The position numbers and the translations under genes were made by a program. From a virus (Duplodnaviria > Heunggongvirae > Uroviricota > Caudoviricetes): a stretch of DNA of 35,431 bases. The DNA lies in the IMG/VR virus record IMGVR_UViG_3300018065_000012; one strand, 5' to 3'. Positions 1-32,378 of the stretch are shown piece after piece. Within the stretch, counting starts at the first letter, position 1; each line of letters opens with the position of its first letter. The notes below the pieces were generated by a model. That model was not told the origin of the DNA. It did not search any database and saw nothing but the letters and a program-made list of their open reading frames with translations.

Positions 1-417
1 GATGAAGGTTCACAAGGCAATCAAGGATGGCAAGGTTGGCAAGCAAGCGGTGGCGAAGAAAGAGCGTTGTTCTGTTGTTCGTTCTTTACTTCAAAGCGGT
101 CATACATTGAGTATTCACAAACAACGTGGGGTGCTGCTGCGGAATTCTGGTTTGCCGGTACAGACGTTGTAACGCCAGACATGATTGTTCTTATTGGTTC
201 AAGAAACGCAACGTCAGGCACAGCAGAAGTGCGAGTGTACGATGTAACGAATAATAATGAGATAGCATACATATCATGGACAACGGATGTGATGACGATT
301 TACAAGGATGAAAGTTTAACGAATTTGCCAGCAAGCGAGGCAATCCTTGAAATCCAAGTCAAGAAAAGTGCTGGTGGTGCTTCCAAAGTAAGATTGCATT
401 CGTTCAGGATGGAATAA
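1..417 (+). CDS. 5'-truncated hypothetical protein. Its C-terminal domain is paralogous to the C-terminus of the next gene.
   Basis: The reading frame is open from window position 1 with no stop before 417. The C-terminal VRVYDVTNNNEIAY...AILEIQVKKS resembles VRLRDTTNNNTVSE...AVIELQMKVS of the 421..1086 product. Confidence 0.5.
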   Translation, partial: DEGSQGNQGWQGWQASGGEERALFCCSFFTSKRSYIEYSQTTWGAAAEFWFAGTDVVTPDMIVLIGSRNATSGTAEVRVYDVTNNNEIAYISWTTDVMTIYKDESLTNLPASEAILEIQVKKSAGGASKVRLHSFRME

Positions 418-420
418 TCA

Positions 421-1086
421 ATGGGAACGAAAAAAACATATAGAATCTATTGTGAAACGGAAGTAAAGCAAGTCGAAGGGCCGACTATCCTTGACACTCC
501 TCCGACGTTGTGTCCAAACAATCCAGCGCATACGGTTGATGCTGCAAGCAAAACTGTACTTGAAGAATGGTGTATTGATAATCTTGAAGCAACAACTAAC
601 CCGACTGTTAATGACGACATCAATGACGGTTATGGAGTTGGGTCGAGATGGATTAATACAAATACGAGTAGAGAATTTTCATGTACGAGTAATGCTTCGG
701 GCAGTGCAAAATGGGTAGCACAAATTCAGCGGGAAATTCATTTTCCATGTGGTTCTTTGAATACGGGATATTCTGTAGTTCAAAATAACACGACGTATAC
801 AATGATTCGTTCAATCATTTTTCTTGGAACGAATATGATTGGGACGCCAATTGGAGTACAATACTATGCAGCTCCAAGCGGTGGTGGTACGATGGATGTT
901 CGGTTAAGAGATACGACAAATAACAATACAGTTTCGGAAAAGACAGGTATCACTTCTTTGGGGCTTCATACGGATTTATCAACAAGCAACTGGCCTGCGG
1001 GTCAGGCAGTTATTGAATTGCAGATGAAAGTTAGCCAAGAAGGTGAGACTGCGTATATTTCTGACGCTATAATCGGTTTTGCGTAA
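421..1086 (+). CDS. Hypothetical protein of paralog family A; possible fibre or receptor-binding-like protein.
   Basis: The ATG is 4 nt after the upstream stop. The N-terminus KKTYRIYCETE matches NEYRLYCYTE of the next gene, and the C-terminus matches the preceding gene. Confidence 0.55.
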   Translation: MGTKKTYRIYCETEVKQVEGPTILDTPPTLCPNNPAHTVDAASKTVLEEWCIDNLEATTNPTVNDDINDGYGVGSRWINTNTSREFSCTSNASGSAKWVAQIQREIHFPCGSLNTGYSVVQNNTTYTMIRSIIFLGTNMIGTPIGVQYYAAPSGGGTMDVRLRDTTNNNTVSEKTGITSLGLHTDLSTSNWPAGQAVIELQMKVSQEGETAYISDAIIGFA

Positions 1087-1097
1087 GAGGAATTCCA

Positions 1098-1856
1098 ATG
1101 ACAAAAGTGAATGAATACAGGCTCTATTGTTATACAGAGGCTACAAATGTCCTTGGTTGGGGTACTATCGCCCCGACTGCTTGTTATCACAACACAGAGC
1201 ATTCGATTGACCTTGACTCTATTGTCATTGTGGATAGTGTTGATGATGAAATAGTGCAAGCAGACATTATCGAGGAAAACGTACAAACAGGCGAGAGGTA
1301 TCAAGCAGAACAGTTCAACATTACTGCGTTAACAGGCTCGGACTGGCAGAGTTTCAACTTCAGTAATCCAATTCCTGTAACAGTCAAAAAGGGAACCATC
1401 TACGTGCATGACAATTGTGTGGGTGATGAATTTGAGTGCTTGATGTCCCCTGATACAATCATTGGAGTTATTACAGCAGATGTAGCAGCGGAAGCAACGG
1501 AGATAAGCGTTTCAGAAACGGTCATCAACAACATTTTCGTTGGCGCTGAAGTAAAACTTTTTGACGGTGTGAATCAAGACAATCTTGAACGTTGTATTGC
1601 AATAGATACGGATACGAACAAAATCACAGTGGAAACAGCAACCACGCATTCATTCTCAGCGAGTAGTCCGACGTATGTTCAAATGACAGTTTGCTTTGTG
1701 CATGACGTTAAAATCATAAACAATGCCGTCATTGAGTTGGGGGAGAATGCTATTAAGGGATTCCATTGGCCTGCAAATGTCGTCTTGCAATTACGATACA
1801 AAAACAATAATGGCGAGACGAAGAACATCGGTGCGCTTTTGGAGTATTATTACTAA
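1098..1856 (+). CDS. Hypothetical protein of paralog family A.
   Basis: A GAGGAA RBS sits upstream. The N-terminus is shared with the 421..1086 product. The ORF is 252 aa with no internal stops. Confidence 0.55.
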   Translation: MTKVNEYRLYCYTEATNVLGWGTIAPTACYHNTEHSIDLDSIVIVDSVDDEIVQADIIEENVQTGERYQAEQFNITALTGSDWQSFNFSNPIPVTVKKGTIYVHDNCVGDEFECLMSPDTIIGVITADVAAEATEISVSETVINNIFVGAEVKLFDGVNQDNLERCIAIDTDTNKITVETATTHSFSASSPTYVQMTVCFVHDVKIINNAVIELGENAIKGFHWPANVVLQLRYKNNNGETKNIGALLEYYY

Positions 1857-1857
1857 C

Positions 1858-2274
1858 ATGGCTCAAGGAAAAAGAAAACTCACAGCTTATATTTTTCTGG
1901 CGTTTGTATTTGGTCTTATCGCTTGGGATGTTTTTGTGGCAGTAAATGATGTTCCCGGCGATACGATAAGTGAAATAGTCCTATCTTGGACAGGACGTTT
2001 TTGTGTCGTTCCCTTTGCGGCTGGCGTTTTAATGGGACATATCTTCTGGACATTGAAAAAGAAACCTTCGAGATGGTTCACAATACCGATTCTCCTTGCT
2101 GTTACTGCTCTCTTGCTCGTGTGGGATATTGTAACGGTGTTGAAGATAAGCGAAAGTTTGTGCAAGGTTTGGCTGGCGAATCATCCCGTTGTCCCTTTGT
2201 TAGCGGGAACGGTTTGCGGTCATTTTCTTTGGGGCCAACCACAAATGATAGAGGAAAGTAAAGATGGCAACTGA
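1858..2274 (+). CDS. Small integral membrane protein with about four predicted TM helices.
   Basis: The ATG at 1858 is 2 nt after the previous stop. There are four hydrophobic stretches (LTAYIFLAFVFGLIAW, VVPFAAGVLMGHIFW, IPILLAVTALLLVW, VVPLLAGTVCGHFLW). The ORF-track N-terminal extension overlaps the upstream gene. Confidence 0.5.
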   Translation: MAQGKRKLTAYIFLAFVFGLIAWDVFVAVNDVPGDTISEIVLSWTGRFCVVPFAAGVLMGHIFWTLKKKPSRWFTIPILLAVTALLLVWDIVTVLKISESLCKVWLANHPVVPLLAGTVCGHFLWGQPQMIEESKDGN

Positions 2275-2458
2275 ATTTGTCCCCACCGTACAAGCAGACA
2301 TTGACATGATTACAAAGTTTGAAGGCAACACGATTCCAGTGTCAATCAAACTTCCTTCTGGAGCAGTTGTACCCACTCCTGATGCGGGTTGTGTATGGAG
2401 AGCAAAAGGCGGGAAGCTGATTTCAGAAAAAGGCTCAGTACAAAATGTAATGCGTTAA
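2264..2458 (+). CDS. Small hypothetical protein (64 aa).
   Basis: An AGGAAAG RBS precedes it, and its start overlaps the end of the previous gene. Confidence 0.35.
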   Translation: MATEFVPTVQADIDMITKFEGNTIPVSIKLPSGAVVPTPDAGCVWRAKGGKLISEKGSVQNVMR

Positions 2459-2487
2459 AATTTTTCTGTTATTTTTCGCTGCCAAGG

Positions 2488-2496
2488 TTGTATAAT
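2488..2496 (+). promoter_or_regulatory. Extended -10 promoter TTGTATAAT upstream of the glycosyltransferase operon.
   Basis: TGnTATAAT consensus in an intergenic gap 29 nt before a GGAGAA RBS. The same 9-mer is also at 7467, 9663 and 19456. Confidence 0.45.
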
Positions 2497-2524
2497 AAAG
2501 CACAACCTTTGGAGAATATGAACC

Positions 2525-5500
2525 ATGCCTATCGCTGGAATCAAAGTCTTCTTTGTCGGCAAATCGTGGAACCTATCTTACGACATCAAGACCTCTAAGC
2601 ATATCGCAAATTTGATGTCTGATATTGCACAGTTCAAGCCTGATGTCATTGTCACATCCGAGTTTACTCCCGGTGCCTTAAATGTTGCTGATTTTGAAAT
2701 ACGGAAGCGGTGGATTGAAGTTCCTCCCAATTCAGATAATGCTTCTGTTGGAAGAGCAATCGAATCCTGCTATGCGTCGAACATTTGGGGAGAGCATAAA
2801 TTTAGCAAGCAGAATCCACTTGTTACGGTCTACACGGGAACATATAACACAGGTGACTTCCTACGGGACACTTTTCAATCATTACGGGAACAATCCTATA
2901 CGAATTGGGAATGGTCTGTTGTTGATGATGAAAGCACAGATGGCACTTGGGAACGGCTTATTGAAATAGCCAAAGAAGACCATCGAGTACATCCAGTAAG
3001 AATCAAGCATAGTGGCAAGATTGGAGCGGTGAAAGACGTTGCGACTCGTCTTGCAAATGGCGTCTATCTGATTGAACTTGACCATGATGATATGCTGACT
3101 GACAATTGTATTCAGGAAGTCAGGAAGGCATTTGAAGAAAACCCCGATGTTGGTTTTGTTTATTCCAATTGTGCGTCGTTCTTTCAGGATGGTTCGCCGC
3201 ATCAGTTCACAGATAATTTTTGGAAGCCGAGATACAGGGAAACAGAATACCGTGGAAAGAAGTATTTGGAGTGTAGGAATCCTGACATCTATGACCGCTT
3301 TGGAGAAAACTATCAACAGCAATTTGGCTGGTTCTTAACCGTGGGGCCGAACCATGTGAGGTCTTATCGAGCAAGTGTTTTGAAGGAGTTGGGCGGCTAC
3401 AATCAACACTTACCTGTAGCGGATGATTGGGATGTATATGCGAGATTCTTTTTGAATTCCAAATGCCTTCATCTTGACAAGATGCTTTATCTGTATCGCT
3501 TTTTGGATAGTTGGTCAAATACGACATTCACTCGCAACAAGTCGATTCAAGACCATTTGGCTTTGGGGCATCATAACTATCGGAAAGCGTTTATCGACTT
3601 CAACAACAAACGTTTACAATCTGAGGAACAGTCTGGTAATGAAACAGATTTCGTTACCAAAAAACGAGGTGTTTCCGCTGTGATTCTTGACTGGAATACA
3701 ATGGGAGAAACGTTGCTTTGTGTTGAATCCCTGAAAGCTTGCTATCCCGATGTTGAAGTTGTACTGGTTCAGAATGGCAAGCACTTTGATTGTCCGAAAG
3801 CTGACAAGGTGATTCAACTCGAAATGAATGTTGGTTTCTCGGCTGGTGTGAATCGTGGTGTAATGGAAACGAGTGGAGAATTGTTACTGCTTTTGAATAA
3901 TGATACTGTGGTTGAGAAAGGCTTGCTTGAGAAGCTTGAGAAAGAACTGGATAATCCTGATGTTGGTGTAGTTGGCCCTTACTCGAACGAAGCGAAGTAT
4001 CCACAAGGAAATTACGAATCTCATGCTGTTCCAAGTTTAACACAAGATTTGGATACGCTTTCTGGTTTCTGCATGTTAATGAGGAAAGACTTGTTTGAGT
4101 GTGTTGGTGGATTTGACCCACGCTTGACGACGTTTGAAGATGACGATTTTTGCCTTAAGGTGCGGCAACAGTTTAGGTTGAAATGCCGTGTGGTTGGTGG
4201 TACTTGGCTACATCATAGTGGGCATAGTTCATTTAAGACGAATGACCTTGACGTATTTGAAGTGATGAAAGAGAACAAGCAGAAGTACCGTGAAAAACGT
4301 CCTCATGTTCGAGTAATTGCTTTGACATATAATGAGAAGAGAGCGTTACCGGAATTCATTAACCAGTTGAGCAGCATTACAAATGACTTCTGCTTTCTTG
4401 ACAACGGCTCTACGGATGGAACAGTTGAATGGCTGAAGGAAAACGGAAGGAAAGTAGTAGTTCGAGAAGACGCAATTGAATCATATAGTCAACGACGAAA
4501 TATGGCGCTTGATATATTCCGTGACGATGCTGCTGAATGGATTGTGATGATTGACCCCGACGAACGTTTGGACAGCAACACAATCAATCATTTTGAGGAA
4601 TTGCTTCAGGCTCCGTATGACATCTATCTCTCTCCGTTGTGGTCAAAGAATTACGACAATACCCAAACAGAATGGGTAGCAAAGCCGTTCCTGTTCCGAA
4701 ACAAACCTGAGATACGTTGGGTGTTTCCTGTCCACGAGAAGCTGATTGGTTCTCATTCTCAGGCGTTAGTAGTCAACGCTCGGAATACGCACGTCTTGGA
4801 ATTACATTCGAAAGAGCGGCGTCAAGAGAATGCGAAAAAGTATGGCGACAAAGACGCACCATTGAATCATCCAGACGCACATGGTTTTCCCATTCTGAAT
4901 TACGAACATAGGGATGATGACAGAATCAAGAAGGTGTATTTGGGGCCACTCGTTTCGGTTGTAGTTCCGACGTATGACAGGAAGGAACTGCTTGCCAAGG
5001 CATTAGCATCTATTGAAAAACAGGATTATTTGGCAATTGATCCGGTAGTAGTTGGTGATAATTGTCCAACGCTTGAACCTTCTGAACGCCAATATAATTT
5101 GCCGATAAATCATGGCGCTGGCGGGGCTGTTCCAAGGAATTACGCAATCATGTTGGCGGCTGGTGATTGGATAGCTTACTTGGATGACGATAATGAATGG
5201 GAACCATACCATTTGTCGAGTCTGATGAGAATAGTTCAAGAAGCCAATGTTGGTTTTGCATTCTCGTCGATGTCGGTGAATGGTAAAGCGATGATTTTTG
5301 CAGAGCCGAAGTTTGGGAGGATTGATACATCATGTGTAGTACATCGAAAAAGCCTGATACGGGATTTCGGTTGGTGGAATGATAGAATCAAAGCTGGTTA
5401 CGCACATGATTGGGAATTTTTCAGTCGATGGGTTGTTGGTAAAGTTCCTTGGGCAGCGACAATGTTTCCTACAGTGATTTACAATGCAGAGACTTCAGGA

Positions 5501-5533
5501 CAAAAGGAATTTCTTGAGAGAATGACGCAATGA
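2525..5533 (+). CDS. Multidomain glycosyltransferase with four tandem GT2 (GT-A fold) domains.
   Basis: There are four repeats of the GT2 N-terminal signature with DxD-type motifs: VTVYTGTYNTGDFL...VVDDESTDGT...ELDHDD; VSAVILDWNT...LLNNDTVV; VRVIALTYNEKRAL...LDNGSTDGT...IDPDE; VSVVVPTYDRKELL...YLDDDNEW. Confidence 0.85.
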   Translation: MPIAGIKVFFVGKSWNLSYDIKTSKHIANLMSDIAQFKPDVIVTSEFTPGALNVADFEIRKRWIEVPPNSDNASVGRAIESCYASNIWGEHKFSKQNPLVTVYTGTYNTGDFLRDTFQSLREQSYTNWEWSVVDDESTDGTWERLIEIAKEDHRVHPVRIKHSGKIGAVKDVATRLANGVYLIELDHDDMLTDNCIQEVRKAFEENPDVGFVYSNCASFFQDGSPHQFTDNFWKPRYRETEYRGKKYLECRNPDIYDRFGENYQQQFGWFLTVGPNHVRSYRASVLKELGGYNQHLPVADDWDVYARFFLNSKCLHLDKMLYLYRFLDSWSNTTFTRNKSIQDHLALGHHNYRKAFIDFNNKRLQSEEQSGNETDFVTKKRGVSAVILDWNTMGETLLCVESLKACYPDVEVVLVQNGKHFDCPKADKVIQLEMNVGFSAGVNRGVMETSGELLLLLNNDTVVEKGLLEKLEKELDNPDVGVVGPYSNEAKYPQGNYESHAVPSLTQDLDTLSGFCMLMRKDLFECVGGFDPRLTTFEDDDFCLKVRQQFRLKCRVVGGTWLHHSGHSSFKTNDLDVFEVMKENKQKYREKRPHVRVIALTYNEKRALPEFINQLSSITNDFCFLDNGSTDGTVEWLKENGRKVVVREDAIESYSQRRNMALDIFRDDAAEWIVMIDPDERLDSNTINHFEELLQAPYDIYLSPLWSKNYDNTQTEWVAKPFLFRNKPEIRWVFPVHEKLIGSHSQALVVNARNTHVLELHSKERRQENAKKYGDKDAPLNHPDAHGFPILNYEHRDDDRIKKVYLGPLVSVVVPTYDRKELLAKALASIEKQDYLAIDPVVVGDNCPTLEPSERQYNLPINHGAGGAVPRNYAIMLAAGDWIAYLDDDNEWEPYHLSSLMRIVQEANVGFAFSSMSVNGKAMIFAEPKFGRIDTSCVVHRKSLIRDFGWWNDRIKAGYAHDWEFFSRWVVGKVPWAATMFPTVIYNAETSGQKEFLERMTQ

Positions 5534-6525
5534 GTAATGACTACGACGAATTCAACAGTTGGAAAGCACTTCTCTATGCTGATAAGTGTCGGGCGATTTT
5601 GGATGGTAATTTTCTTCCTCCCGTTATGATCCATGTTTATCCGACAAACAAGTGTAATGGCAGATGCAATTTTTGCATAATGAAAACAGAACAAGAATAC
5701 AAAACAGAGTTGGAGAAGTCTGTTTTTGAAAGGCTCGTCCAATCCGCAAATGATATGGGCGTAAAAGGTTTGCAAATAACGGGTGGCGGAGAACCACTTT
5801 TGTATTCGCACCTTCATCATATTCAAAAATTCAACGGGTTCAAATTGTTAGCAACCAATGGCAGTTTTCTTACGCCTGAGATCGCTTCGATGTTTGATAG
5901 GATACGTGTGAGTTTGAATGCGGGAAATGCGAAAACACATTCAGCAGTTATGGGGCTAAATAATTTCAGTGAAGTTATTGTCAACATGAGGCGTGTTAAA
6001 AAGCATTGTCCAAACGTTACGATGGGCATTGGGTTTGTTTTGAGTTTTGATAATTGGCATGAGGTTTTCGATGTTTGTGAAATTGCTGACAGTGTTGGCG
6101 CTGACTTTGTTCATATCAGACCGGCCTTTTTTGCGGATAAAAAGAGAGACAAAAAGGTAAGAGAAATAGTTGAGGCGGCTTATCACCTTTGCGAAGCGGC
6201 AAAGAAGCGGAACATCGTCAAGGTGTTCGCTATCTCAGAGAAGTTTGATGGCTATTGGACAGAACGCAAATACAAGAAGTGTTTGGCTTCCCCTTTGAAT
6301 GCGGTTGTAACGGCTACAGGAGAATTGGTGCCGTGCCTTGATGTTTTTATTCGATTTGGAGATTTGAATAAGAATACGTTTGAGGAAATTTGGGGAAGCG
6401 AAGAACACAAAAAAGCAATTGCAAAGATTGAGATTGAGAAATGCCCTCGTTGTGTGATGACTAAACCAAACGAAATTATAGAAAACGTTTTCATCAAGAA
6501 CAAAATCTTGGCGGAGCTGCTATGA
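5530..6525 (+). CDS. Radical SAM enzyme with a C-terminal Cys-rich (SPASM/twitch-like) region.
   Basis: CNGRCNFC (CxxxCxxC) lies near the N-terminus after YPTNKCN. A glycine-rich GGGEPLL SAM-binding motif is present. C-terminal cysteines include CLDV...EKCPRCVM. There is ATGA start-stop overlap with the GT gene. Confidence 0.8.
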   Translation: MSNDYDEFNSWKALLYADKCRAILDGNFLPPVMIHVYPTNKCNGRCNFCIMKTEQEYKTELEKSVFERLVQSANDMGVKGLQITGGGEPLLYSHLHHIQKFNGFKLLATNGSFLTPEIASMFDRIRVSLNAGNAKTHSAVMGLNNFSEVIVNMRRVKKHCPNVTMGIGFVLSFDNWHEVFDVCEIADSVGADFVHIRPAFFADKKRDKKVREIVEAAYHLCEAAKKRNIVKVFAISEKFDGYWTERKYKKCLASPLNAVVTATGELVPCLDVFIRFGDLNKNTFEEIWGSEEHKKAIAKIEIEKCPRCVMTKPNEIIENVFIKNKILAELL

Positions 6526-7415
6526 AAATTGGAGTGATGTTTTCAGGAGTTACAGGAAACAACGGTGCTGATTACGTTGCTGAATTTCTTGGCAATGCTG
6601 TGTTGCTTGAAGGGCATGAACTGACTTATATCGGTTCAATGGGTGGCGAACAAACGCAAGACGTTCCTTCTGGGCTGGATGTCGTGATCAATTCTTCCGG
6701 ATTTGGTTTGACTCCTGCGCTTGTTGAACGGTTTAAGAAACGATGCAAATTCTTTCTTTGGACGTTCAATGATGAAATTCATTTCTGGCAAAGTCGGATA
6801 GGTTCAATCACAGAATTGGTTGATAAGCATTTCTGTTATACAAAAACGCATTCCTATGGTCATCACGTTGAATATCTCCCGCTTGCAGCAGATCATTCAA
6901 TTTATTTTCCGATTGAAGGCTGTAAGAAACGTTATGACATTTCCATGATTGGGGCAGCACATCCTTGGAGAACTCAATTTGCTCAAGAGATTAGTCGTTT
7001 CTTTCCAAACTGTAAATTCAGTTTCAATATGAGTATGACTGACCGGCAAATAAATCTGCTTTACAATATGACGCGTGTAGTGATTGCGCCGATGCAAGAT
7101 GGCGATCAATACAACGAACAAGTAGTATTTGGATGTCCTTGTCGCACGTTTGATGTTCCTGCTGCAAGAGCGTTTCAATTACAAGCATACCGATCTGGTT
7201 TGCATGATGTTCACGACAGCGAAGAAATCATTGTGGGGACAACATTAAAGAGCACAAAGGATATTTTTGAAGTCATTTCAGAATGGATTGACAAAATTCG
7301 ATATTACTTAGATGAAGAAAAAACGCGGAAGAACTTGGCCGAAAGGATGTATGGCGAGATTACGCATAAACACCTCTATACCCATAGATTAAGTAGTATT
7401 TTGGAATTTGTGTGA
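6522..7415 (+). CDS. Putative GT-B-fold glycosyltransferase (CgeB-like or glycosyl transferase group 1-like).
   Basis: ATGA overlap with the rSAM gene. The C-terminal half resembles GT1/CgeB family (ISMIGAAHPWR...NLLYNMTRVVIAPMQ). No definitive motif is present. Confidence 0.45.
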   Translation: MKIGVMFSGVTGNNGADYVAEFLGNAVLLEGHELTYIGSMGGEQTQDVPSGLDVVINSSGFGLTPALVERFKKRCKFFLWTFNDEIHFWQSRIGSITELVDKHFCYTKTHSYGHHVEYLPLAADHSIYFPIEGCKKRYDISMIGAAHPWRTQFAQEISRFFPNCKFSFNMSMTDRQINLLYNMTRVVIAPMQDGDQYNEQVVFGCPCRTFDVPAARAFQLQAYRSGLHDVHDSEEIIVGTTLKSTKDIFEVISEWIDKIRYYLDEEKTRKNLAERMYGEITHKHLYTHRLSSILEFV

Positions 7416-7466
7416 GAATCATATTTTGATTTTTTTGAAATATTTTTGGAATTTTCCGTTCGCGAG

Positions 7467-7475
7467 TTGTATAAT
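7467..7475 (+). promoter_or_regulatory. Extended -10 promoter TTGTATAAT driving the tmRNA precursor.
   Basis: It is 20 nt upstream of the mature tmRNA 5' end GGGGGCG, consistent with a short 5' leader removed by RNase P. Confidence 0.5.
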
Positions 7476-7494
7476 ATATCGTTCTTTGGAAAAT

Positions 7495-7849
7495 GGGGGC
7501 GTCATGGTATCGACTGGCGCTGATTGTAGCACGGTTGCGTGCCGAGGTCGCCGGTTGGCCTCGTTAAAAAACCGGCAACGCCATTCACTTGGCAACAGCT
7601 ACAAAATGGCGGCGTGAGTCGCTCGTCAACTTGATCGACGCCGATGGGTCAATGTTTGACGTAAATGCTTTCGGTTGACAGCTGGCAAAGACCGCTGACG
7701 ACTCGCGGAAAGACGTGGGCCGCGTAAAGGGGTGGAATTGCCTTTTGAGGCTTGTCCAGTGGGCCAAGAATAAAAACCACGGAATACGCACGTAGAAGCC
7801 TGTTACAAAAGTGAACAGGACGCGGGTTCGATTCCCGCCGCCTCCACTA
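7495..7849 (+). ncRNA. ssrA: tmRNA (SsrA) with a tRNA-Ala-like domain and an internal tag reading frame.
   Basis: The 5' GGGGGCG pairs with the 3' CGCCUCC, giving a G3.U70 wobble, followed by discriminator A. The T-arm is GCGGG-UUCGAUU-CCCGC. The D-analogue GGUAUCGAC and the PK1 region GCGUGCCGAGG...GGUUGGCCUCGUUAAAAA align closely to E. coli SsrA. The tag ORF at 7591..7617 is GGC AAC AGC TAC AAA ATG GCG GCG TGA, giving (A)GNSYKMAA. Confidence 0.88.
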
Positions 7850-7886
7850 TTAAAAAGTTTCGGGGCAAGCTCAGTGCTTGTCCAAA

Positions 7887-7929
7887 GGAAGGGGAGCTTT
7901 CGGCCCCAAACTCCCCTTCCGGTTCTTTG
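7887..7929 (+). terminator. Rho-independent terminator downstream of the tmRNA.
   Basis: A perfect 10-bp inverted repeat GGAAGGGGAG...CTCCCCTTCC with a 14-nt loop, followed by GGTTCTTTG. Confidence 0.6.
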
Positions 7930-8199
7930 ACAAAAATTTCATGCACGCTTCAAGGCAGGGATACTTCAATAGCGATATATAAATTGGAGTGGAGAAATCC
8001 TGACAGCACCGGAAAGACGGGCAAAGGTGGTGACTTCCTTAAAGTCAATGGCAACCGTGAAAAGAGGCGGTGACAGGCGTGGATAGACACGCACGGTAGC
8101 TTACATAATAAAATGTAAATGCCGTAAAACAGACAAAATTTCCTTGCTTGACTTTTGGTGCATAAATTTTTGTCTTACGTCTATTGGGAGGACGGCAAT

Positions 8200-8406
8200 A
8201 TGTACAAGATTGAACTATTGCGATCCAAGAGCAAAAGAAAGAATGAAAATTTCTATTGGCGCTTGATTTCAAGAGCGAATGGAAATATTCTTTCGACTGC
8301 GGAACCTTATGCGCGTCGTCCTTGGACAGTGATCAAGAATCTTGCCGGTGCCTTCAAAAGAGGCAAATGCATTATTGTTGACCTGTCCCAAAAGAAGAAG
8401 AAATAA
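8200..8406 (+). CDS. DUF1508 / YegP-like small protein.
   Basis: A GGGAGG RBS precedes the ATG. The sequence FYWRLISRANGNILSTAEPYARRPWTVIKNLAGAF matches the YegP/DUF1508 repeat pattern (FRLKA.NGEII..SEGY). Confidence 0.6.
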   Translation: MYKIELLRSKSKRKNENFYWRLISRANGNILSTAEPYARRPWTVIKNLAGAFKRGKCIIVDLSQKKKK

Positions 8407-8783
8407 GGTTTCCCTTGTTGGCCGAGGGCCGATGGTTCCTCATCGTCCTCTCCTCACTCTACGGGTGGAGCTGTTTGCATTTGGTTGGCAAGGGAAAAGT
8501 TTTCTAACCGGCATTATCAGTATCATGGCGCTGCCGGTTATATTTGTTCTTTGAAAAAATTCCAACACGCTTCAGTTGAGAGATACTTCTACTATCGGTT
8601 CTAAGGTAGCTTAGGTCAAACCCTGTTTCGGCAGGGAGACACAGTGAGGACAAAACTGGTAACAGTGAGTCCGCGTCAAAGGCAAAGCTTATGAAACTCA
8701 TACGCGTCGTGGCGGTGGGTGAGGCTTGTACTGGCAACCACACACGAAAATACTTTCAACGTTTTTTGGTGTTGGTGCTTTTT

Positions 8784-8848
8784 CCGGGTGTGCTTTGGGT
8801 ATCCCAAACTTGATCTCCGCGAACAAGTGCCTACGCACCCGGTTTTTT
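8784..8848 (+). terminator. Stem-loop plus U-tract (CCGGGTGTG...CGCACCCGG TTTTTT), possibly the 3' end of an ncRNA or an attenuator.
   Basis: A 9-bp stem with one G.U pair and a ~41-nt loop, followed by six T residues, lying immediately before the RBS of the 8866 gene. Confidence 0.4.
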
Positions 8849-8865
8849 AATGGTAAGGAGACATT

Positions 8866-9639
8866 ATGAAAAATGTGATTGAGAAATTTGCGCGAATGGG
8901 TGCACGGCTCAAAATCAACCAAACAGATCGTCCCGTACGCTTTCGCGCCAACAACGAGTTCCGCATTGACGTTTTGCGCGATAAGAATGGCGAATTTTTC
9001 GACATTCAAACGCAAGACATCGACATGAAAGTGCTTGATGTACAATCCGCAGATCGCCATTTGCTTTTGCGCGTTGGCGATGAAAACTTTCTCTGTGGTC
9101 ACGATGAACGTCAATGGTTTGTCGCTGGCGTGAAAACAAATGCGCCCACAGTCAAGAGAGCAAAGGAAGCGCTGAAACCACTTGGAGTGCGCTCTTCCGA
9201 ACGCAAGAATCGCGTCAAAGGAAAAAACAGAATCAAGCGGCATAACAAAGGTTCTATCCGACAAGGAGAATGGTTCTTTGTCCCTGAGCCAGATGCCAGA
9301 TTTAATGCGAATTTGATTCTCAGAAAAGAACCTTTGATGCGTGGCAACCGTGGCGGTGGAAAACCCCATATTGCGGAGGAACTTGTTCGCATGGGTGGAA
9401 CGACAGTTTATGTTAATCCCCGCCATCGCAACGGTCTGATGGAAAAGGAATACAAAAAACTTTTGGCAGAAACGCCTTCTGCGAAAAGGTGGCGCTGGCA
9501 AGTGATGAAGCGCGACCCAAGGGTTTACGTTCGCGGTAAAATTCGCCATCCCGATCACAAGACAGTAAAGCTTCAAGGATGGTATCGGGTTGAAGTCAAT
9601 GACGAAATTTTCAGCGAGCGAGTAGCTTTTCTTGATTAA
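8866..9639 (+). CDS. Hypothetical basic protein (257 aa).
   Basis: A strong AAGGAGA RBS precedes a long clean ORF. I recognise no motif. Confidence 0.6.
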   Translation: MKNVIEKFARMGARLKINQTDRPVRFRANNEFRIDVLRDKNGEFFDIQTQDIDMKVLDVQSADRHLLLRVGDENFLCGHDERQWFVAGVKTNAPTVKRAKEALKPLGVRSSERKNRVKGKNRIKRHNKGSIRQGEWFFVPEPDARFNANLILRKEPLMRGNRGGGKPHIAEELVRMGGTTVYVNPRHRNGLMEKEYKKLLAETPSAKRWRWQVMKRDPRVYVRGKIRHPDHKTVKLQGWYRVEVNDEIFSERVAFLD

Positions 9640-9643
9640 GTTC

Positions 9644-9671
9644 TTGAATTTTGTTCTTTGAGTTGTATAAT
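9644..9671 (+). promoter_or_regulatory. Sigma70-like promoter: TTGAAT, 16-nt spacer, TGTATAAT.
   Basis: The -35 TTGAAT is at 9644..9649 and TTGTATAAT at 9663..9671. It lies in an intergenic gap 47 nt before the ATG at 9718. Confidence 0.55.
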
Positions 9672-9717
9672 AATAGAGAAGTGTGTGCTTTGTCCTCTGC
9701 TAACTTTGGAGGAAATT

Positions 9718-10764
9718 ATGAGCCATTTTACTGTTCTGGTTCGGTTTTCCGATGCGTTCAAAAATTCTCATGGTGGCGTCCAGCAAGCTATAAACGAAAT
9801 GCTTGCGCCCTATCAAGAAAACAATATGGAAGACTGTCCAAAGGAGTTTCTTGAATTTAATGATGTTGAAAAGGAGTATCGGAAAAAGTACAAGGAAGAA
9901 TCACAGGAATTAGTCCGAATGCCAGATGGTAAATTGATTTCAAAATATAACGACCGATTCAAAAAGCTCAAAGATGGAAGCAAGTATTCATATGATCGCA
10001 TTATTCCTGATGATTGCGAGTTAGTTAACGTGCCTCACAACCAACATTACGCGACGTTTGAAAAATTCATGGAAGATTACGGTGATTATGAAAAAGACGA
10101 AAGTACGGGGAAATACGGCTATTGGGAAAATCCAAATGCCAAATGGGACTGGTTTCAAATTGGTGGCCGTTGGCAAGGTTGTTTGCACGTTAAGAAAGGG
10201 GCGCGAAGCGCAAAGAACGGCGAACCAAGTCTTTTAATGAAGGACCATAAATTTGAAGACGACAAAGTGGATGCTGCTCAAAAATGCGACATCGACTTTG
10301 AAGGTTGGAAAGCTGATACAGACAAACAACTTGAGGAATGGTGGAAGAAATATCAACAACTTTTGAAAGGGACGTTAAAAGAAGACGACAACCCTTTTTA
10401 CGGGATGCATTACGACCTTTGCCAAATGGGGTTGAGAGAAACGCCTGCGGTCAACGACAAAGAAATTGAAGCCGCAAGAAAAAAGTCCCCAAAGGATCGT
10501 TCAAAATGGCCTGAAGCAGTTTGGATGACAAAAGAGATTACAAAAGCCGAACTTGAAATAAACTACCGCTGGCGGTTTGAGTTCAACACTTATGCCGCCT
10601 GTACTGAAAAAGAGGGATGGCTTGAAAAAGGAAAAATGGGCTGGTTTGGTTGTAGCACTGATAAAAGCGAAGACAGGGAGAAATGGGGCAAAAGCTTTTT
10701 CAACCGTTTCTTCTTGAACGCACCGGAGGATGAATGGTTTGCAGTCGTTGACTGCCACATTTGA
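9718..10764 (+). CDS. Hypothetical acidic, Trp-rich protein (348 aa).
   Basis: A GGAGG RBS precedes the ATG and a promoter lies directly upstream. The YGYWENPNAKWDWFQIGGRWQG segment is distinctive but unrecognised. Confidence 0.6.
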   Translation: MSHFTVLVRFSDAFKNSHGGVQQAINEMLAPYQENNMEDCPKEFLEFNDVEKEYRKKYKEESQELVRMPDGKLISKYNDRFKKLKDGSKYSYDRIIPDDCELVNVPHNQHYATFEKFMEDYGDYEKDESTGKYGYWENPNAKWDWFQIGGRWQGCLHVKKGARSAKNGEPSLLMKDHKFEDDKVDAAQKCDIDFEGWKADTDKQLEEWWKKYQQLLKGTLKEDDNPFYGMHYDLCQMGLRETPAVNDKEIEAARKKSPKDRSKWPEAVWMTKEITKAELEINYRWRFEFNTYAACTEKEGWLEKGKMGWFGCSTDKSEDREKWGKSFFNRFFLNAPEDEWFAVVDCHI

Positions 10765-10828
10765 CCTTTCTTAAATTTTGGTTCCGCTTTGTGTGAGAGC
10801 GGTTCGCTTCTGTAGAAAGGAGAGTATT

Positions 10829-12658
10829 ATGGGTAGAATGAAAAAGTTGGCGAAGAACAAGGCGAAGACGGCACGGCTTCCGTCGGAACAGACAAACGCA
10901 ACGGTAAACCGCGCAGGCGGTGTTTCGTTTGATATTACCGTTCCGGCTATCAAGCTGATGACCATGACGGGTGGAAGCTTTTTCATGGAACCGCGTTATT
11001 ACGATGCGGACAAGTGCGTGCCAAAGCGCGAAGCTGGCGGAAAGCTTGGCAAGCTTCAAGAGCGTTTGAAACTGGCAAAGAACAAGTCGTTGGAAGGCAG
11101 TAAGGCGTTGAAAGAATCCAACGTCAATGAGTTGGATGAATTGTCCCGTGAGGTCATGGCAACTGCTTGGGATGTTCTGAACAGCGATAATCCGAGCGAC
11201 TTGCTGAAGATTGCCCACTGGCTGCGGCGTGAAATGAACATCAGAATGACGCCGCAAGTGCTGTTGGTGCTTGCGTCACAACATCCAAACGGAAAGCCTT
11301 TTGTACGCGAGTACACGCCGAAGATAATTGCGCGTCCGGATGAGATCAAGACGGTCATCCTGATGCACAGGTTTTTCTTTGGCATGAAGAACTTGAAGAA
11401 CTGCTTGCGTTACGGTCTGTCTGATGCTATGGCAAAGATGGGCGAGCGCGGCCTGATCAAGTATGAAGGCAAGGATTTTCCAAGCTGGAAGGACGTCCTT
11501 TTCATGGTTGCTCACGCGAAGGATTATCCGCTGAGCAAGCCAGTTGCGGAATACTTCATGTTTGGCAAGGTCAGTGATGAAGCTCCGATTGCTTCCGCAA
11601 GAAAGCAGTTGGCTGGTTGCAAGAAGCTTGGCACAAAGGCGAAGAATCTGATTTCTACGTCTTTTGCAAACTGGGAAGTCGTTTTGTCTCAGTTTGGTCA
11701 GACTGCGGAAAGCAAGAAGGAAGTTTGGGAATATCTTATCAAGGAAAATTTGGTCGGCTACATGGCCATGATGAGAAACCTGCGGAACGTCCTTCAGGCA
11801 GGAGTTGGCGGCGATACGGTCAAGCGTATCCACGACAAGCTGTCTGATCCAGAGCAGGTAAAGCGTTCCAGACAACTTCCTTTCCGTTTTGCGATGGCCG
11901 CAAAGGTGCTTGGTGCTGACTATGGTATCACTGATCGTTGGTACTATGATCGGGACGTAAGCAATCAAAAGTTTGAGTGCAATGAAAAGCACCGCAGTAT
12001 TATTCAGGATGCTTTGGAAAACGCTGCGGACGAAGCGGTGATCAATGTGCCTGAACTTCCGGGCGTGACTGCTGTGTTTGCAGATAACAGCGGTTCAATG
12101 TCGCAGATGGTCAGCGAAAAGAGCAAGGTGTCGTGCGCTTTGGCTGCAAATATGCTTGGTGGTATCGTGGCGAAGCGTTCAGCAAATGCTCGCGTCTGTG
12201 CCTTTGGTACGGATGTAAAAGAAGTCAACTACACGAAGCGGACGCGTGTGCTGGAGTTTGTCGGTAAGCTTGCAAAGGCCGAAACAAATGGCTGCTCCAC
12301 TAACACGCATCGTTGCGCTCAGTGGTTGATGAAGAACGGCATTGCCGCTGACCGTGTGATCATCCTCAGCGACATGCAGTGCTGGGATTCCCGTTCGGCA
12401 GGTAGCAGACGGGGGTTGTGGGGTTATAGTGATCAAAGTTTTGCTGATGAATGGTTCAAGTACAAGAAGTCAAACAAGGACACTTGGCTTCACTGCGTCA
12501 ACTTGAATGGATATGGAGATAGCATGGTTGACGACAAGTCCGACAAAGTGAACCTTGTTGGCGCGTTCAGCGAAAAGATTATCAGCATGCTTCTGGTCAC
12601 TGAAGGCGTAATGACGGACGCAGTTCCAACTCTTGAACAACTTAGAGAGAAGTGGTAA
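10829..12658 (+). CDS. rsr: Ro60/Rsr-like ribonucleoprotein with a TROVE domain and a C-terminal vWA domain.
   Basis: The N-terminal TNATVNRAGGVSFDI...TGGSFFMEPRYY follows the Ro60 TROVE pattern (compare human NSQDGYVWQV...FGSEGGTYYI). The C-terminal vWA has a MIDAS motif VFADNSGSMS with downstream T/D residues (GCSTN, ILSDMQ). An AGGAGAG RBS is present. Confidence 0.62.
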   Translation: MGRMKKLAKNKAKTARLPSEQTNATVNRAGGVSFDITVPAIKLMTMTGGSFFMEPRYYDADKCVPKREAGGKLGKLQERLKLAKNKSLEGSKALKESNVNELDELSREVMATAWDVLNSDNPSDLLKIAHWLRREMNIRMTPQVLLVLASQHPNGKPFVREYTPKIIARPDEIKTVILMHRFFFGMKNLKNCLRYGLSDAMAKMGERGLIKYEGKDFPSWKDVLFMVAHAKDYPLSKPVAEYFMFGKVSDEAPIASARKQLAGCKKLGTKAKNLISTSFANWEVVLSQFGQTAESKKEVWEYLIKENLVGYMAMMRNLRNVLQAGVGGDTVKRIHDKLSDPEQVKRSRQLPFRFAMAAKVLGADYGITDRWYYDRDVSNQKFECNEKHRSIIQDALENAADEAVINVPELPGVTAVFADNSGSMSQMVSEKSKVSCALAANMLGGIVAKRSANARVCAFGTDVKEVNYTKRTRVLEFVGKLAKAETNGCSTNTHRCAQWLMKNGIAADRVIILSDMQCWDSRSAGSRRGLWGYSDQSFADEWFKYKKSNKDTWLHCVNLNGYGDSMVDDKSDKVNLVGAFSEKIISMLLVTEGVMTDAVPTLEQLREKW

Positions 12659-12687
12659 ACAAAATTGTAAATCTCTTTCTGGTTTTT

Positions 12688-12722
12688 GCCCCTGTTGCCG
12701 GTGGTAGCAGGGGTATTTTCTT
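12688..12722 (+). terminator. Rho-independent terminator after rsr.
   Basis: GCCCCTG, a 13-nt loop, CAGGGGT, then ATTTTCTTT. Confidence 0.6.
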
Positions 12723-12739
12723 TAGACAGGGAGCGTGCA

Positions 12740-12976
12740 ATGAAAATGAAATGTCCGGGATGTGGTTCAGAAGAAAGTTTCACGATCAGCGCACATGCAA
12801 TAGTCAAAATTGATTCAGAGGGCAATGAAGGTTTTTCAGAGGATTTGAATTGGAGCGATGACGACGATTGTGAATGTGATGAGTGCAATTTTGCAGCCAA
12901 TGTCGGGAACTTCAAACAAACCGCCGAACGAGTACAAAAAGAAAATTATCATCCACAACAGTTAACTCTTTTCTAA
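12740..12976 (+). CDS. Small zinc-ribbon protein.
   Basis: A GGGAG RBS is present. Two Cys pairs (CPGCG and CECDECNF) flank an acidic stretch. Confidence 0.5.
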   Translation: MKMKCPGCGSEESFTISAHAIVKIDSEGNEGFSEDLNWSDDDDCECDECNFAANVGNFKQTAERVQKENYHPQQLTLF

Positions 12977-12998
12977 ATCAATTCTGAGGGAGGAAACA

Positions 12999-13523
12999 AT
13001 GGCAGAAGCAGTCAAAGCACCCGACGTATACAATTTGCAAACGAAATTGGGGATTTTTTTGGCGGGTAGTATCGAAATGGGAAAAGCCGAAAATTGGCAA
13101 GAACGTGTTACAAAAGGATTGCAGGATGAACAAGACATTGTCATTCTCAATCCCCGCCGTGACGACTGGGACAGCACGTGGACTCAAAGTATTAGCAATC
13201 CACAATTTTATGAACAGGTGACTTGGGAATTGCAGGCTCAAGAAGATGCCAACGTGATCGTGATGTATTTTGACCCGTCAACAAAATCTCCAATCACGCT
13301 CCTTGAGTTGGGAATTTTCTCGCAACACAAATTCACAAAAGACGGCCTGCCAAAGAAAATGATCGTATGTTGTCCAGAAGGTTTTTGGCGCAAAGGAAAC
13401 GTCGATATAACTTGCGAACGCTATGCTATTCAGCAGGTTTCGACGATTGATGAATTGGTTGAACAAACCAGAAAAGCTGCTACTGAAATCCTTACGCAAA
13501 AGCTGAGTAAAGCGTTGGAATAA
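12999..13523 (+). CDS. Nucleoside 2-deoxyribosyltransferase-like (Rossmann, DRTGG/Rcl/LOG-related) protein.
   Basis: GIFLAGSIEMG...VILNP...DW...VIVMYFDPSTKSPITLLELGIF matches the PF05014-type pattern (iYlAGp...D.GTafElGya). A strong GAGGGAGG RBS is present. Confidence 0.45.
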   Translation: MAEAVKAPDVYNLQTKLGIFLAGSIEMGKAENWQERVTKGLQDEQDIVILNPRRDDWDSTWTQSISNPQFYEQVTWELQAQEDANVIVMYFDPSTKSPITLLELGIFSQHKFTKDGLPKKMIVCCPEGFWRKGNVDITCERYAIQQVSTIDELVEQTRKAATEILTQKLSKALE

Positions 13524-13611
13524 TGGTGGTTTTGGACTGTTTTGTTCGCGTTCTTTTGCCTTTATGACCTTTGGATCATTTCTTCTTCTCTGTTGAAGAA
13601 AATGGGCCAAA

Positions 13612-13872
13612 ATGAAAACTTGGACGGTCTATCTCGTGATGTGTTCAGACAATACATTGTATTGCGGTTGCACGACTAATTTGCCATTGCGCATCAGGGT
13701 GCATAATCTGAAAAAGGGTGCGAAATATACACGTGGAAGATGCCCTGTAAAAGTTGTTGCCTTTGTAGAAAACTTATCTCACGGTGACGCGCTAAGGCTC
13801 GAAAGAAAAATCAAGAGTTTGCATAAGGATGAAAAAGTTCCGTTTCTGAAACGCTATAAGCCGACGCGGTAA
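13612..13872 (+). CDS. GIY-YIG domain protein (UPF0213 / YhbQ-like).
   Basis: WTVYLVMCSDNTLYCGCTTNLPLRIRVHN...AKYTRGRCPVKVVAFVE...ALRLERKIK fits the GIY-YIG core (Y..Y.G.T.nl.rR...H, R, E). Confidence 0.6.
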   Translation: MKTWTVYLVMCSDNTLYCGCTTNLPLRIRVHNLKKGAKYTRGRCPVKVVAFVENLSHGDALRLERKIKSLHKDEKVPFLKRYKPTR

Positions 13873-13988
13873 CTTTGGAGGCTTTTGTAAATACCTACAT
13901 AAAAAGTAATTACAGCAAAACAAAATCTCAACATGCATAATTCTTTTATATTTACACGTTTTATAGACAGAGTGTATGGAATCAACTG

Positions 13989-14576
13989 ATGCTGATAGAC
14001 ACTTTCACGTTGAATCGCATTACCGATACGTATGTAAGTGTCGCTTGGACAGCTACAGACCTTACGAAGACCTGTTGGCTTTACAACAATGGGATTTTGA
14101 TTGGTCAGTATCTTGACGGGACGACTCTTGCGCGTGAAGTTGAATTCAGCGTCAAAGAAGATCAATATCACTTGATTGAGATTCACGAAGCGCAAGGTGA
14201 TGATCCAGAAACAGGAATTGATGAAAGCGACCCCGTTGAAACAATTACAGTTGTTTACGAAGATTATGACTTAAAGTGGAATCGCGTTCCTGAAGCAGTT
14301 TATTACGAAATTTTTCATACTGTAGCAAATGGCGTTGAAAGGAAAATCAAAACCGTTTATCAACAAGATGATGTTTCTCTTTACATTCGTCCTGCTCCTG
14401 AGTTGGAACGCGAAGGCGGTATATGGCATCATTTCAGAGTTGAATCAGTCGACGAATGGGAAAACCGTTCCGTAAGAAAACAATGGCACTATTTTGTCTA
14501 TGGGAGACCACCTGTCCCAGAAAGCGTTATAGTGACGGGTGGAAGCGGAGTCTTTGATATCACGGTGAACTTGTAA
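13989..14576 (+). CDS. Hypothetical protein, possibly Ig/FN3-like and virion-associated.
   Basis: A 195-aa ORF at the start of a structural-looking block. The RBS is weak. Confidence 0.4.
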   Translation: MLIDTFTLNRITDTYVSVAWTATDLTKTCWLYNNGILIGQYLDGTTLAREVEFSVKEDQYHLIEIHEAQGDDPETGIDESDPVETITVVYEDYDLKWNRVPEAVYYEIFHTVANGVERKIKTVYQQDDVSLYIRPAPELEREGGIWHHFRVESVDEWENRSVRKQWHYFVYGRPPVPESVIVTGGSGVFDITVNL

Positions 14577-25826: not shown

Positions 25827-26162
25827 ATGGACGATAACAGCATCTCAAAAGAATTGGCAAATATCAGTCAAATTATTGATTCCGCACGCTTGCTTGAACT
25901 TGTTCGAAAAGAAGTTGGGACAGCGATGCAGGGCAAGCAGGCAATGGTTATTGGCGGAGAACTTTCTGATAAGCCAAATTATGATGTCGTTGTTATCCAT
26001 CACTCAGGCAAAGATGGCAATGGTGTGATCACACGTCGTTTGCGAGACGCTGTTGAAGATATTGAGATTACAAATCTTGACAACATGGTTGATAACATGC
26101 TTGGCATACGTTACAAACAGGAAAAGACGCCGGATGTATCTAAAACCAACAGCGCTGGTTGA
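25827..26162 (+). CDS. Hypothetical protein (111 aa).
   Basis: An AAGGGAA RBS is present, and the ATG is in frame with the 25536 ORF. Confidence 0.4.
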   Translation: MDDNSISKELANISQIIDSARLLELVRKEVGTAMQGKQAMVIGGELSDKPNYDVVVIHHSGKDGNGVITRRLRDAVEDIEITNLDNMVDNMLGIRYKQEKTPDVSKTNSAG

Positions 26163-27446: not shown

Positions 27447-27919
27447 GTCCAACAACAGGTGAAGCCTATTACAGCGGCACTTGGGAAGACGTGCGCAATC
27501 TTTGTAAGGTTTTGAAGATTGGCAGTGGGCGGCTCGCATTGATAGACCAAAAGCTTGTTGAGTTTTATCAGGAACAGGTTGATCGTGAAATCGATGGAGA
27601 ACTTGAACAATATTATTATGTCCCATTACGTTCGTACAATATGTATCGCCCGGTTGATTCAACGACAATTTCCGTATTTCCGGGAGCGATACGTTCATTA
27701 GCTCGGCATTGGGCTGCTGGCGCTCTATTGATGAGCGAGTTTCAAGACCTTGATCCAAACGCAAATGAAGGTGCCACGACTTATATTACGGAGAGCAAAC
27801 AAAAGCTTTATGATTTTATGCGCTTTCAAAAACGTATTCCCGGACAAACTTGGAAACACAATTTGCGAACGATGCCTCCAACAATGGCACCGGGGTTCAA
27901 CCCAGAACCGGAATGGTAA
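27434..27919 (+). CDS. Hypothetical protein (161 aa).
   Basis: A GAGAGAAA RBS is present, and the gene overlaps the end of the upstream gene. Confidence 0.45.
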   Translation: MPDVSPTTGEAYYSGTWEDVRNLCKVLKIGSGRLALIDQKLVEFYQEQVDREIDGELEQYYYVPLRSYNMYRPVDSTTISVFPGAIRSLARHWAAGALLMSEFQDLDPNANEGATTYITESKQKLYDFMRFQKRIPGQTWKHNLRTMPPTMAPGFNPEPEW

Positions 27920-27920
27920 T

Positions 27921-32375: not shown

Positions 32376-32378
32376 ATA

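Follow-up and report, generated by a model that had tools for sequence, protein, structure and literature searches.

Several viruses glycosylate their own particles. Chloroviruses and Mimivirus, whose enzyme L230 modifies collagen, encode cytoplasmic glycosyltransferases (GTs), some of them multi-domain, that decorate virion proteins independently of the endoplasmic reticulum, and Freeman is said to have reported in 2023 that mycobacteriophage virions are glycosylated by phage GTs. We know of no radical S-adenosylmethionine (SAM) enzyme that takes part in glycosylation in chloroviruses, Mimivirus or mycobacteriophages. By analogy, the closest functional precedent for the locus described here is SgtA of C. 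difficile, a GT-A enzyme encoded beside bclA3 that attaches O-linked N-acetylglucosamine (O-GlcNAc) to Thr in the collagen repeats of BclA3 (PMC7157674). The locus is a three-gene cassette of a tailed phage, encoded in a stretch of 35,431 nucleotides (IMG/VR virus record IMGVR_UViG_3300018065_000012; hereafter, the window) that forms the end of a 338-kb metagenomic phage contig. It encodes a chain of four family 2 GT domains (tetra-GT2 fusion), a radical SAM enzyme and a compact GT-B protein. We propose, with about an even chance of being right in our own estimation, that this cassette is a cytoplasmic protein-glycosylation module for collagen-like tail fibres of the virion. The three open reading frames (ORFs) of the cassette are joined by ATGA overlaps at 5530-5533 and 6522-6525:

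2525..5533, + strand: tetra-GT2 fusion, 1002 aa, predicted soluble; identified from Pfam, per-domain PDB matches and motif conservation
2525-2806 (aa 1-94): N-domain of the fusion
2807-3604 (aa 95-360): domain D1 of the fusion
3677-4294 (aa 385-590): domain D2 of the fusion
4307-4924 (aa 595-800): domain D3 of the fusion
4937-5530 (aa 805-1002): domain D4 of the fusion
5530..6525, + strand: radical SAM enzyme, 331 aa, predicted twitch-like, with a Cys set for one auxiliary cluster
6522..7415, + strand: compact GT-B of the CgeB / Glyco_trans_1_2 type, 297 aa

The family PF00535 (Glycos_transf_2) was detected in four separate stretches of the fusion (214.7 bits versus a cut-off of 23.3, E 1e-63), and each quarter of the protein, searched singly, retrieved GT2 structures from the PDB. 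The DxD-type motifs are ELDHDD (residues 184-189) in D1, LLNNDT (about 460) with FEDDD (538) in D2, IDPDE (677) in D3 and LDDDN (887) in D4. Because the motifs of all four domains are conserved in 44 full-length homologues, and invariant or near-invariant in 34-44 homologues, all four domains are probably catalytic. The best PDB relatives are K4CP chondroitin synthase, GalT1 and TarP/TarS for D1, and PglI, TarS and GalT1 for D4; D2 produced a single weak match. The family profile of D3 best matched the flagellin O-GlcNAc transferase GmaR (1.9e-16), followed by ThuS (1.4e-10) and SunS (3.5e-9), which are GT2s acting directly on proteins or peptides; D3 also matched the SunS family of NCBIfam and Pfam PF13704. 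Hydropathy analysis revealed no transmembrane (TM) segments in any of the three cassette enzymes, and none of the three reached the equivalog level in NCBIfam.

A reading made from the sequence alone, before our analysis (the sequence-only reading), had recognized four GT2 domains with four DxD variants in one chain, the ATGA coupling, the radical SAM motif and the CgeB-like GT, and all of these assignments stand. It had also called the four-domain chain unusual, which is true of the architecture but not of its distribution. The search with the fusion yielded 348 matches; the best 120 clusters all scored at or above about 900 bits, and many of these are about 1000 aa long and align end to end at 45-77% identity. 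Over 100 protein clusters belong to the family, and many of them come from contigs 100-512 kb long; longer homologues carry additional Glyco_tranf_2_5 or methyltransferase domains. An identical 1002-aa protein is encoded on a 36-kb contig from another sample. Judged by these matches, the fusion is a widespread, uncharacterized family with an unusual architecture, and no singleton. Among INPHARED phages, a megablast search with positions 2400-7500 returned zero matches, and tblastn with the fusion and the radical SAM enzyme returned distant matches only (at most 33% identity), with the same architecture in no cultured phage; the region matched by tblastn in S-CRM01 is without fibre context and uninformative. 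A few proteins related to the fusion or the radical SAM enzyme (P0092, P0094, L170) are binned as Phycisphaerae, Planctomycetota or Planctomycetales metagenome-assembled genomes (MAGs), which is either a hint to the host or the result of mis-binned phage contigs.

The genes ahead of the cassette connect it to a fibre:

1..417, + strand: 3' end (C-terminal globular domain) of a giant collagen-like tail-fibre gene, cut by the end of the window and contig
421..1086, + strand: small fibre-like protein, 221 aa, candidate fibre accessory or acceptor
1098..1856, + strand: second small fibre-like protein, 252 aa
1831..2274, + strand: small membrane protein, 147 aa, with 3-4 TM segments by hydropathy; directly upstream of the fusion in the clade
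2264..2458, + strand: 64-aa ORF, kept in a relative of 77% identity

When translated, segment 67-417 matches residues 1779-1894 of the fibre protein (1894 aa) of a near-identical contig (L001) with 97% identity. That protein contains about 465 G-X-Y triplets, mostly G-N/V-Q and about 24 of them G-x-T, and matches the PHROG tail-fibre and 'collagen like minor tail' families (E 1e-274). At the usual collagen rise, this triplet count would correspond to a rod of roughly 400 nm. The C-terminal half of the 221-aa protein is homologous to the C-terminal domain of the fibre (29% identity, E 3e-11), and this protein is kept in the 77%-identity relative (L011). It shares an N-terminal module of about 48 aa with the 252-aa protein, for which there was no Pfam or PHROG match. 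The 221-aa gene, intact in the window, is split into ORFs of 86 and 83 aa in L001 (7897-8562); thus, fibre accessory genes differ between samples. For the 147-aa membrane protein, there was no Pfam match and GtrA (PF04138) was not detected; its homologues abut or overlap the fusion gene in three relatives (L005, L011, L091). The gene order collagen-like fibre, small proteins, 4-TM protein, fusion, radical SAM enzyme and GT-B is kept in L011 and, in essence, in the 225-kb contig L005 (57% identity), where a portal gene lies downstream. The sequence-only reading had described the cassette as a self-contained operon; this is not fully so, the 4-TM protein and the collagen-like fibre genes being conserved neighbours. 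The portal gene of L005 (14444-17512) carries an intein (Phage_portal and Intein_splicing domains).

We took as collagen-like those ORFs that had runs of eight or more G-X-Y triplets and 16 or more triplets in all, and counted them within 10 kb. Such an ORF was found near 10 of the 12 distinct fusion loci and near 20 of the 45 clusters of stand-alone D1-type GT2s (about 400-430 aa), compared to 0 of the 63 control clusters, i.e., radical SAM-seeded viral loci without the fusion. The association is highly significant (Fisher p = 8e-13). The stand-alone D1-type GT2s (L103-L168, IMG/VR) are common on viral contigs and have an extra N-terminal region of about 105 aa; at these loci, the collagen-like ORF is usually located 0.2-1.3 kb upstream, on the same strand, and can reach 1800 aa. 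Since the control loci lack the collagen-like ORF that accompanies nearly half of the D1-type clusters, the collagen link belongs to the D1-type GT2 and not to the radical SAM enzyme.

In the radical SAM enzyme, the motif CNGRCNFC supplies C42, C46 and C49 (CX3CX2C), which are invariant in 117 homologues, and PF04055 (Radical_SAM) matches with 52 bits versus a cut-off of 29.5 (E 1e-13). The SPASM assignment of the sequence-only reading survives in part: PF13186 (SPASM) matches with 36 bits versus a cut-off of 21.5, but exactly four C-terminal cysteines (C251, C269, C305 and C308) are invariant or nearly so in the 117 homologues, and the seven-Cys SPASM motif CX9-15GX4C...CX2CX5CX3C...C was not found in this set. 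Because only four C-terminal cysteines are conserved, the pattern fits one auxiliary cluster, and a twitch-like reduced form, rather than a two-cluster SPASM domain. In the AlphaFold model (predicted local distance difference test, pLDDT, 95), the core begins at about residue 30 with a single helix N-terminal to it, and no docking domain of the RRE/PqqD-like type is present. The sequence-only reading had allowed for an unusual modification of either a sugar or a peptide. Given the four-Cys set and the absence of a recognition domain for ribosomally synthesized and post-translationally modified peptides (RiPPs), a peptide-modifying role appears less likely than a sugar-modifying one. The RiPP-maturase reading was ruled out, with no RRE, GTs as neighbours and no NCBIfam maturase family reached. 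The best NCBIfam match of the enzyme had 75 bits versus a cut-off of 380, so that no curated family was reached, and a PDB sequence search gave weak matches to the N-terminal part only. The top neighbours in fold searches fall within about four Z units at 13-19% identity, and the peptide or protein maturases SuiB, SkfB, anSME and PqqE are among the sequence and fold neighbours. The predicted fold assigns the enzyme to the SPASM/twitch group but names no substrate.

IMG/VR contains 526 relatives of the radical SAM enzyme. We counted their neighbours within 4 kb on the same strand at 74 distinct IMG/VR loci and found GT2s (28/74), GT2-like proteins (13/74), Anp1-like GT-A proteins (9/74), B12-radical SAM proteins (8/74), GT4 enzymes (7 + 5 loci) and CgeB-like GTs (5 + 4 loci); capsid or portal genes lie near several of the relatives. 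Two cellular settings were also found. On a 293-kb contig of a Pacearchaeota MAG (L008, 4927-15326), a relative of 45% identity lies within an N-glycosylation cluster that looks complete, with a flippase, GT2s, Alg13/14, a GT4-family priming enzyme (Glycos_transf_4) and AglB/STT3. This cluster hints at an unstudied radical step in an archaeal N-glycan. The second setting is a nonulosonic-acid cluster with NeuB, a CMP-transferase, a 2-epimerase and DegT. In a scan of 185,579 species genomes with a single peptide pattern, which is insensitive, the radical SAM family was found on three MAG contigs only.

The GT-B protein matches PF13524 (Glyco_trans_1_2) with 43 bits versus a cut-off of 25; DUF3880, the N-terminal domain of CgeB proper, stays below its cut-off (18.1 versus 25.2 bits). 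The AlphaFold model (pLDDT 90.6) has a full yet compact GT-B fold, which in Foldseek matches GT4-like GT-B enzymes (E 1e-9 to 1e-5). At about 10% identity, it resembles T4 alpha-glucosyltransferase as well as retaining GT4-type enzymes such as MshA, sucrose-phosphate synthase and PimA. The family is small (23 clusters), and its members share contigs with relatives of the radical SAM enzyme. The two genes are found as a pair without the fusion at three loci (L010, L013, L014); at a further locus (L033, 10028-14128), the pair is duplicated in tandem in the order radical SAM, GT-B, radical SAM, GT-B, downstream of a 1274-aa multi-GT2 protein. Judging from this pairing, the two enzymes most likely act on the same sugar.

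We suggest the following model of fibre glycosylation. The soluble tetra-GT2 protein would serve as an assembly line, in which a protein-directed domain starts the glycan and each of the remaining GT2 domains adds one sugar from host nucleotide-sugars. D1 is a candidate for the starting domain because of its association with collagen-like genes, and D3 because of its resemblance to GmaR, ThuS and SunS; likely acceptors would be Ser/Thr residues of the fibre, e.g., in G-x-T triplets like those of BclA3. By 5'-deoxyadenosyl radical chemistry and with one auxiliary [4Fe-4S] cluster, the twitch-type radical SAM enzyme may tailor a sugar, either as a nucleotide-sugar or within the growing glycan, possibly by dehydrogenation, dehydration, epimerization or decarboxylation. 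The compact GT-B would then transfer the tailored sugar or cap the glycan with it, and the outcome would be fibres of about 400 nm with a phage-specific glycan coat. What we infer in this model is which residues accept the glycan, in what order the enzymes act and by what chemistry.

The proposal builds on observed gene content, domain identities, motif conservation, predicted folds and genomic associations. It is supported by the structural neighbourhood of the cassette, with the fibre upstream here, in L011 and in L005 and the portal gene downstream in L005, and by the collagen-like ORFs that accompany both fusion and D1-type loci. The similarity of D3 to protein and peptide GT2s points in the same direction, as do the solubility of the enzymes, the lack of export machinery in the flanks (no phosphoglycosyl transferase, flippase, polymerase or ligase in the precomputed Pfam annotation) and the conservation of all four DxD motifs. 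It is also supported by the relatives of the radical SAM enzyme that sit among GTs, some of them near capsid or portal genes, and by the behaviour of radical SAM enzyme and GT-B as a unit. It should be noted that several points weigh against this proposal. The functional evidence comes from gene neighbourhood, homology and structure prediction. In the PDB, D1 and D4 are closest to enzymes of polysaccharides or lipid-linked glycans (K4CP, TarS/TarP, PglI), PHROG labels include 'GtrB-like O-antigen conversion', and the fusion is directly preceded by the gene of a conserved small membrane protein. The fibre triplets are mostly G-N/V-Q, with G-x-T in only about 24 cases. The survey for nucleotide-sugar and DNA-modification genes was limited to ~35 kb of the 338-kb genome, with 36 ORFs of the window scanned.

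Three functions had been offered by the sequence-only reading, i.e., virion-protein glycosylation, decoration of the host surface and DNA hypermodification. We favour the first, specifically for collagen-like fibres, and find less support for the other two. If the enzymes build or modify an envelope polysaccharide (O-antigen, capsule or a teichoic-acid-like polymer), they could block superinfection or change the receptor. The GtrB-like PHROG labels, the 3-4 TM protein and the nearest relatives of D1 and D4, which include WcaA/TuaG-type enzymes in addition to those named above, would all fit such remodelling, and similar GT and radical SAM cassettes near tail fibres of pelagimyophages have been read as modification of the host O-chain in 'host recognition clusters' (PMC7029224). 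However, all three enzymes are soluble, and the flanks yielded neither GtrA and GtrC nor a phosphoglycosyl transferase for priming, nor a flippase, polymerase or ligase. In addition, D3 gives better matches to protein GTs than to GtrB/DPMS-type enzymes, and the tight linkage of D1-type GTs to collagen-like genes would be left unexplained. We consider host-surface remodelling unlikely, although it is the most serious of the competitors. In DNA hypermodification, the enzymes would place an oligosaccharide with a radical-modified sugar on hydroxymethylated phage bases, thereby evading restriction. Radical SAM enzymes take part in some thymidine hypermodification pathways, and Pyle is said to have described in 2024 phage GTs that decorate DNA with mono- to oligosaccharides; in addition, the GT-B model is similar to T4 alpha-glucosyltransferase (TM-score 0.69, which is non-specific), and a Nuc_deoxyri_tr2 protein is encoded 5.6 kb downstream. 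Against this stand the position of the cassette among fibre and other structural genes, the tracking of collagen-like genes by the D1-type GT, the protein and glycan pathways to which cellular radical SAM relatives belong, and the failure to find a hydroxymethylase, kinase or other base-modification gene among the ORFs scanned in the window. DNA that carries chains of five or more sugars would also be without precedent, and we regard this function as very improbable.

A further alternative leaves the GTs in place and redirects the radical SAM enzyme to the fibre protein, where it would modify a side chain or form a cross-link, e.g., as an oxygen-independent analogue of collagen lysyl/prolyl hydroxylation, and thus create or stabilize the site that the GTs then glycosylate. 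Collagen glycosylation in animals and Mimivirus does come after side-chain hydroxylation, and SuiB, SkfB, anSME and PqqE among the neighbours of the enzyme would be compatible with a protein substrate. Yet outside the fusion loci the relatives have GTs as neighbours instead of collagen-like ORFs (0/63 clusters), some belong to sugar-nucleotide clusters, and the GT-B partner is constant; the enzyme itself has only one auxiliary cluster in its predicted form and no RRE or other substrate-docking domain. This alternative is in our view improbable, if somewhat less so than DNA hypermodification. Fibre glycosylation with a sugar-directed radical SAM enzyme can also be taken further, in a direction that we regard as unlikely: the radical SAM enzyme and GT-B may constitute an unrecognized, largely virus-borne unit that converts a common host nucleotide-sugar into a radical-modified sugar in a single step and installs it on virion proteins. 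Together with D1-type GT2s, it would amount to a phage 'collagen glycosylation code' for very long fibres, perhaps with a new linkage, e.g., to the Asn/Gln-rich G-N-Q triplets rather than to Thr.

All long ORFs of the window share one strand, and judged by its genes the genome is that of a huge phage. The phage context, which the sequence-only reading had set against a host locus, is seen in the collagen-like tail fibre, the tail-tube paralogues, the portal gene in relatives, the 338-kb contig and the relatives in IMG/VR. Because of these structural genes and the huge viral contigs, a chromosomal lipopolysaccharide or exopolysaccharide locus was ruled out. The features beyond the cassette, together with the promoter-like sites, are as follows:

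2487..2497, + strand: promoter-like GTTGTATAATA, 38 nt ahead of the operon start
7466..7476, + strand: promoter-like GTTGTATAATA, 29 nt ahead of the transfer-messenger RNA (tmRNA); overlaps a sigma-70-type site at 7446-7475
7495-7849, + strand: tmRNA, Rfam RF00023, 125.2 bits versus a cut-off of 47, model positions 1-374 (full length)
10829-12658, + strand: phage-encoded Ro60/TROVE plus vWA protein, present in L011 too
12999-13523, + strand: Nuc_deoxyri_tr2 protein
16234-19431, + strand: 1065-aa protein with three Laminin_G_3 domains, of virion structural type
26053-27066, + strand: LD-carboxypeptidase (Peptidase_S66)
27750-29069, + strand: type IB topoisomerase
31263-33278, + strand: two adjacent tail-tube paralogues

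Twenty further ORFs of the window are mostly without a Pfam or PHROG match. The 11-mer GTTGTATAATA occurs in four copies on the + strand (2487, 7466, 9662 and 19455; one with a single mismatch), each just upstream of a gene, compared to 0.49 copies expected by chance, and four copies were reached in 0 of 100 shuffles. It is probably the -10 promoter consensus of the phage. Since it recurs upstream of genes beyond chance, a dedicated promoter appears to serve the operon, one of the type that precedes the tmRNA; both promoters had been proposed by the sequence-only reading. In a generic scan for sigma-70 sites and terminators, counts equalled those in shuffles and were at chance level, and the site before the tmRNA was the sole one called. 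The copy at 2487 lies within the loop of an inverted repeat AAGGTTGT/ACAACCTT.

The tmRNA is a neighbour of the cassette and not a member of it. In L011, the Ro60 gene follows the GT-B gene after 292 bp and the tmRNA is missing at that position; the block from ~7416 to ~10800 (the tmRNA and two or three ORFs) is either an insertion here or a loss in L011. The tag-region reading frame of the tmRNA ends ...GNSYKMAA. ARAGORN found neither tRNA nor tmRNA and thus missed the tmRNA at 7495-7849. A permissive Rfam scan of 7400-14000, around Ro60, yielded nothing credible of the Y-RNA-like family.

If fibre glycosylation by the cassette is true, huge phages carry a multi-step protein-glycosylation line for fibres hundreds of nanometres long, and virus-autonomous glycosylation, known from giant eukaryotic viruses and mycobacteriophages, also occurs across a wide range of uncultured phages. 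A radical SAM family that is an orphan and mostly viral, with hundreds of members, would then be tied to glycan chemistry. Host recognition, resistance to proteases and the environment, and immune visibility could all depend on the glycans of the fibre. The pairing of a D1-type GT2 with a collagen-like gene may serve as a simple genomic marker for such systems, and for new sugar chemistry and glyco-engineering, the radical SAM enzyme with its GT-B partner offers a compact candidate. The locus also suggests caution with the labels 'LPS modification' (LPS, lipopolysaccharide) and 'antibiotic synthesis' that are routinely given to phage GT and radical SAM cassettes; the latter was applied to such a cassette of a cyanophage (PMC12801897). 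In the literature on huge phages, glycosyltransferases and radical SAM enzymes, we found no published study of this cassette.

Compared by description, the SgtA-BclA3 system, and likewise BclA of B. anthracis, has in common with this locus a GT-A/GT2 gene that adjoins a collagen-like gene and a soluble enzyme; SgtA O-glycosylates Thr, and the glycan is extended afterwards (PMC7157674). The differences are a phage virion fibre as the proposed target, four fused GT2 domains, the added radical SAM enzyme and GT-B, repeats rich in G-N/V-Q and not GPT, and the absence of a tetratricopeptide repeat (TPR) domain. The likeness to GmaR, SunS and ThuS (PF13704) is confined to D3, where the profile match spans the catalytic domain including the DxD region; D3 lacks the TPR or peptide-binding C-terminal parts of these enzymes and is embedded in a four-domain chain. 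In comparison with the twitch-type sugar enzymes BlsE, DesII and BtrN, identity is 14-19%, and peptide maturases score equally well. The gtrABC modules of temperate phages resemble the cassette in PHROG labels and in a phage-borne GT2 beside a small multi-TM protein. However, the cassette has no GtrA match in Pfam, no TM anchor on the GT2 and no GtrC, and it is fibre-linked and belongs to a huge phage of lytic type.

With chloroviruses, Mimivirus and mycobacteriophages, the locus shares virus-encoded GTs, some with several catalytic domains per chain, and, in phages, GT genes beside structural genes. The targets there are capsid, tail-tube or fibril proteins, and homology to the cassette was established only at the level of the GT-A or GT-B fold. 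Virus-encoded glycosylation of virions is thus known; what appears to be new is the tetra-GT2 architecture and the pairing of an orphan twitch-type radical SAM enzyme with a mini GT-B, together with a statistically strong and previously unreported linkage of GT2s to collagen-like fibres.

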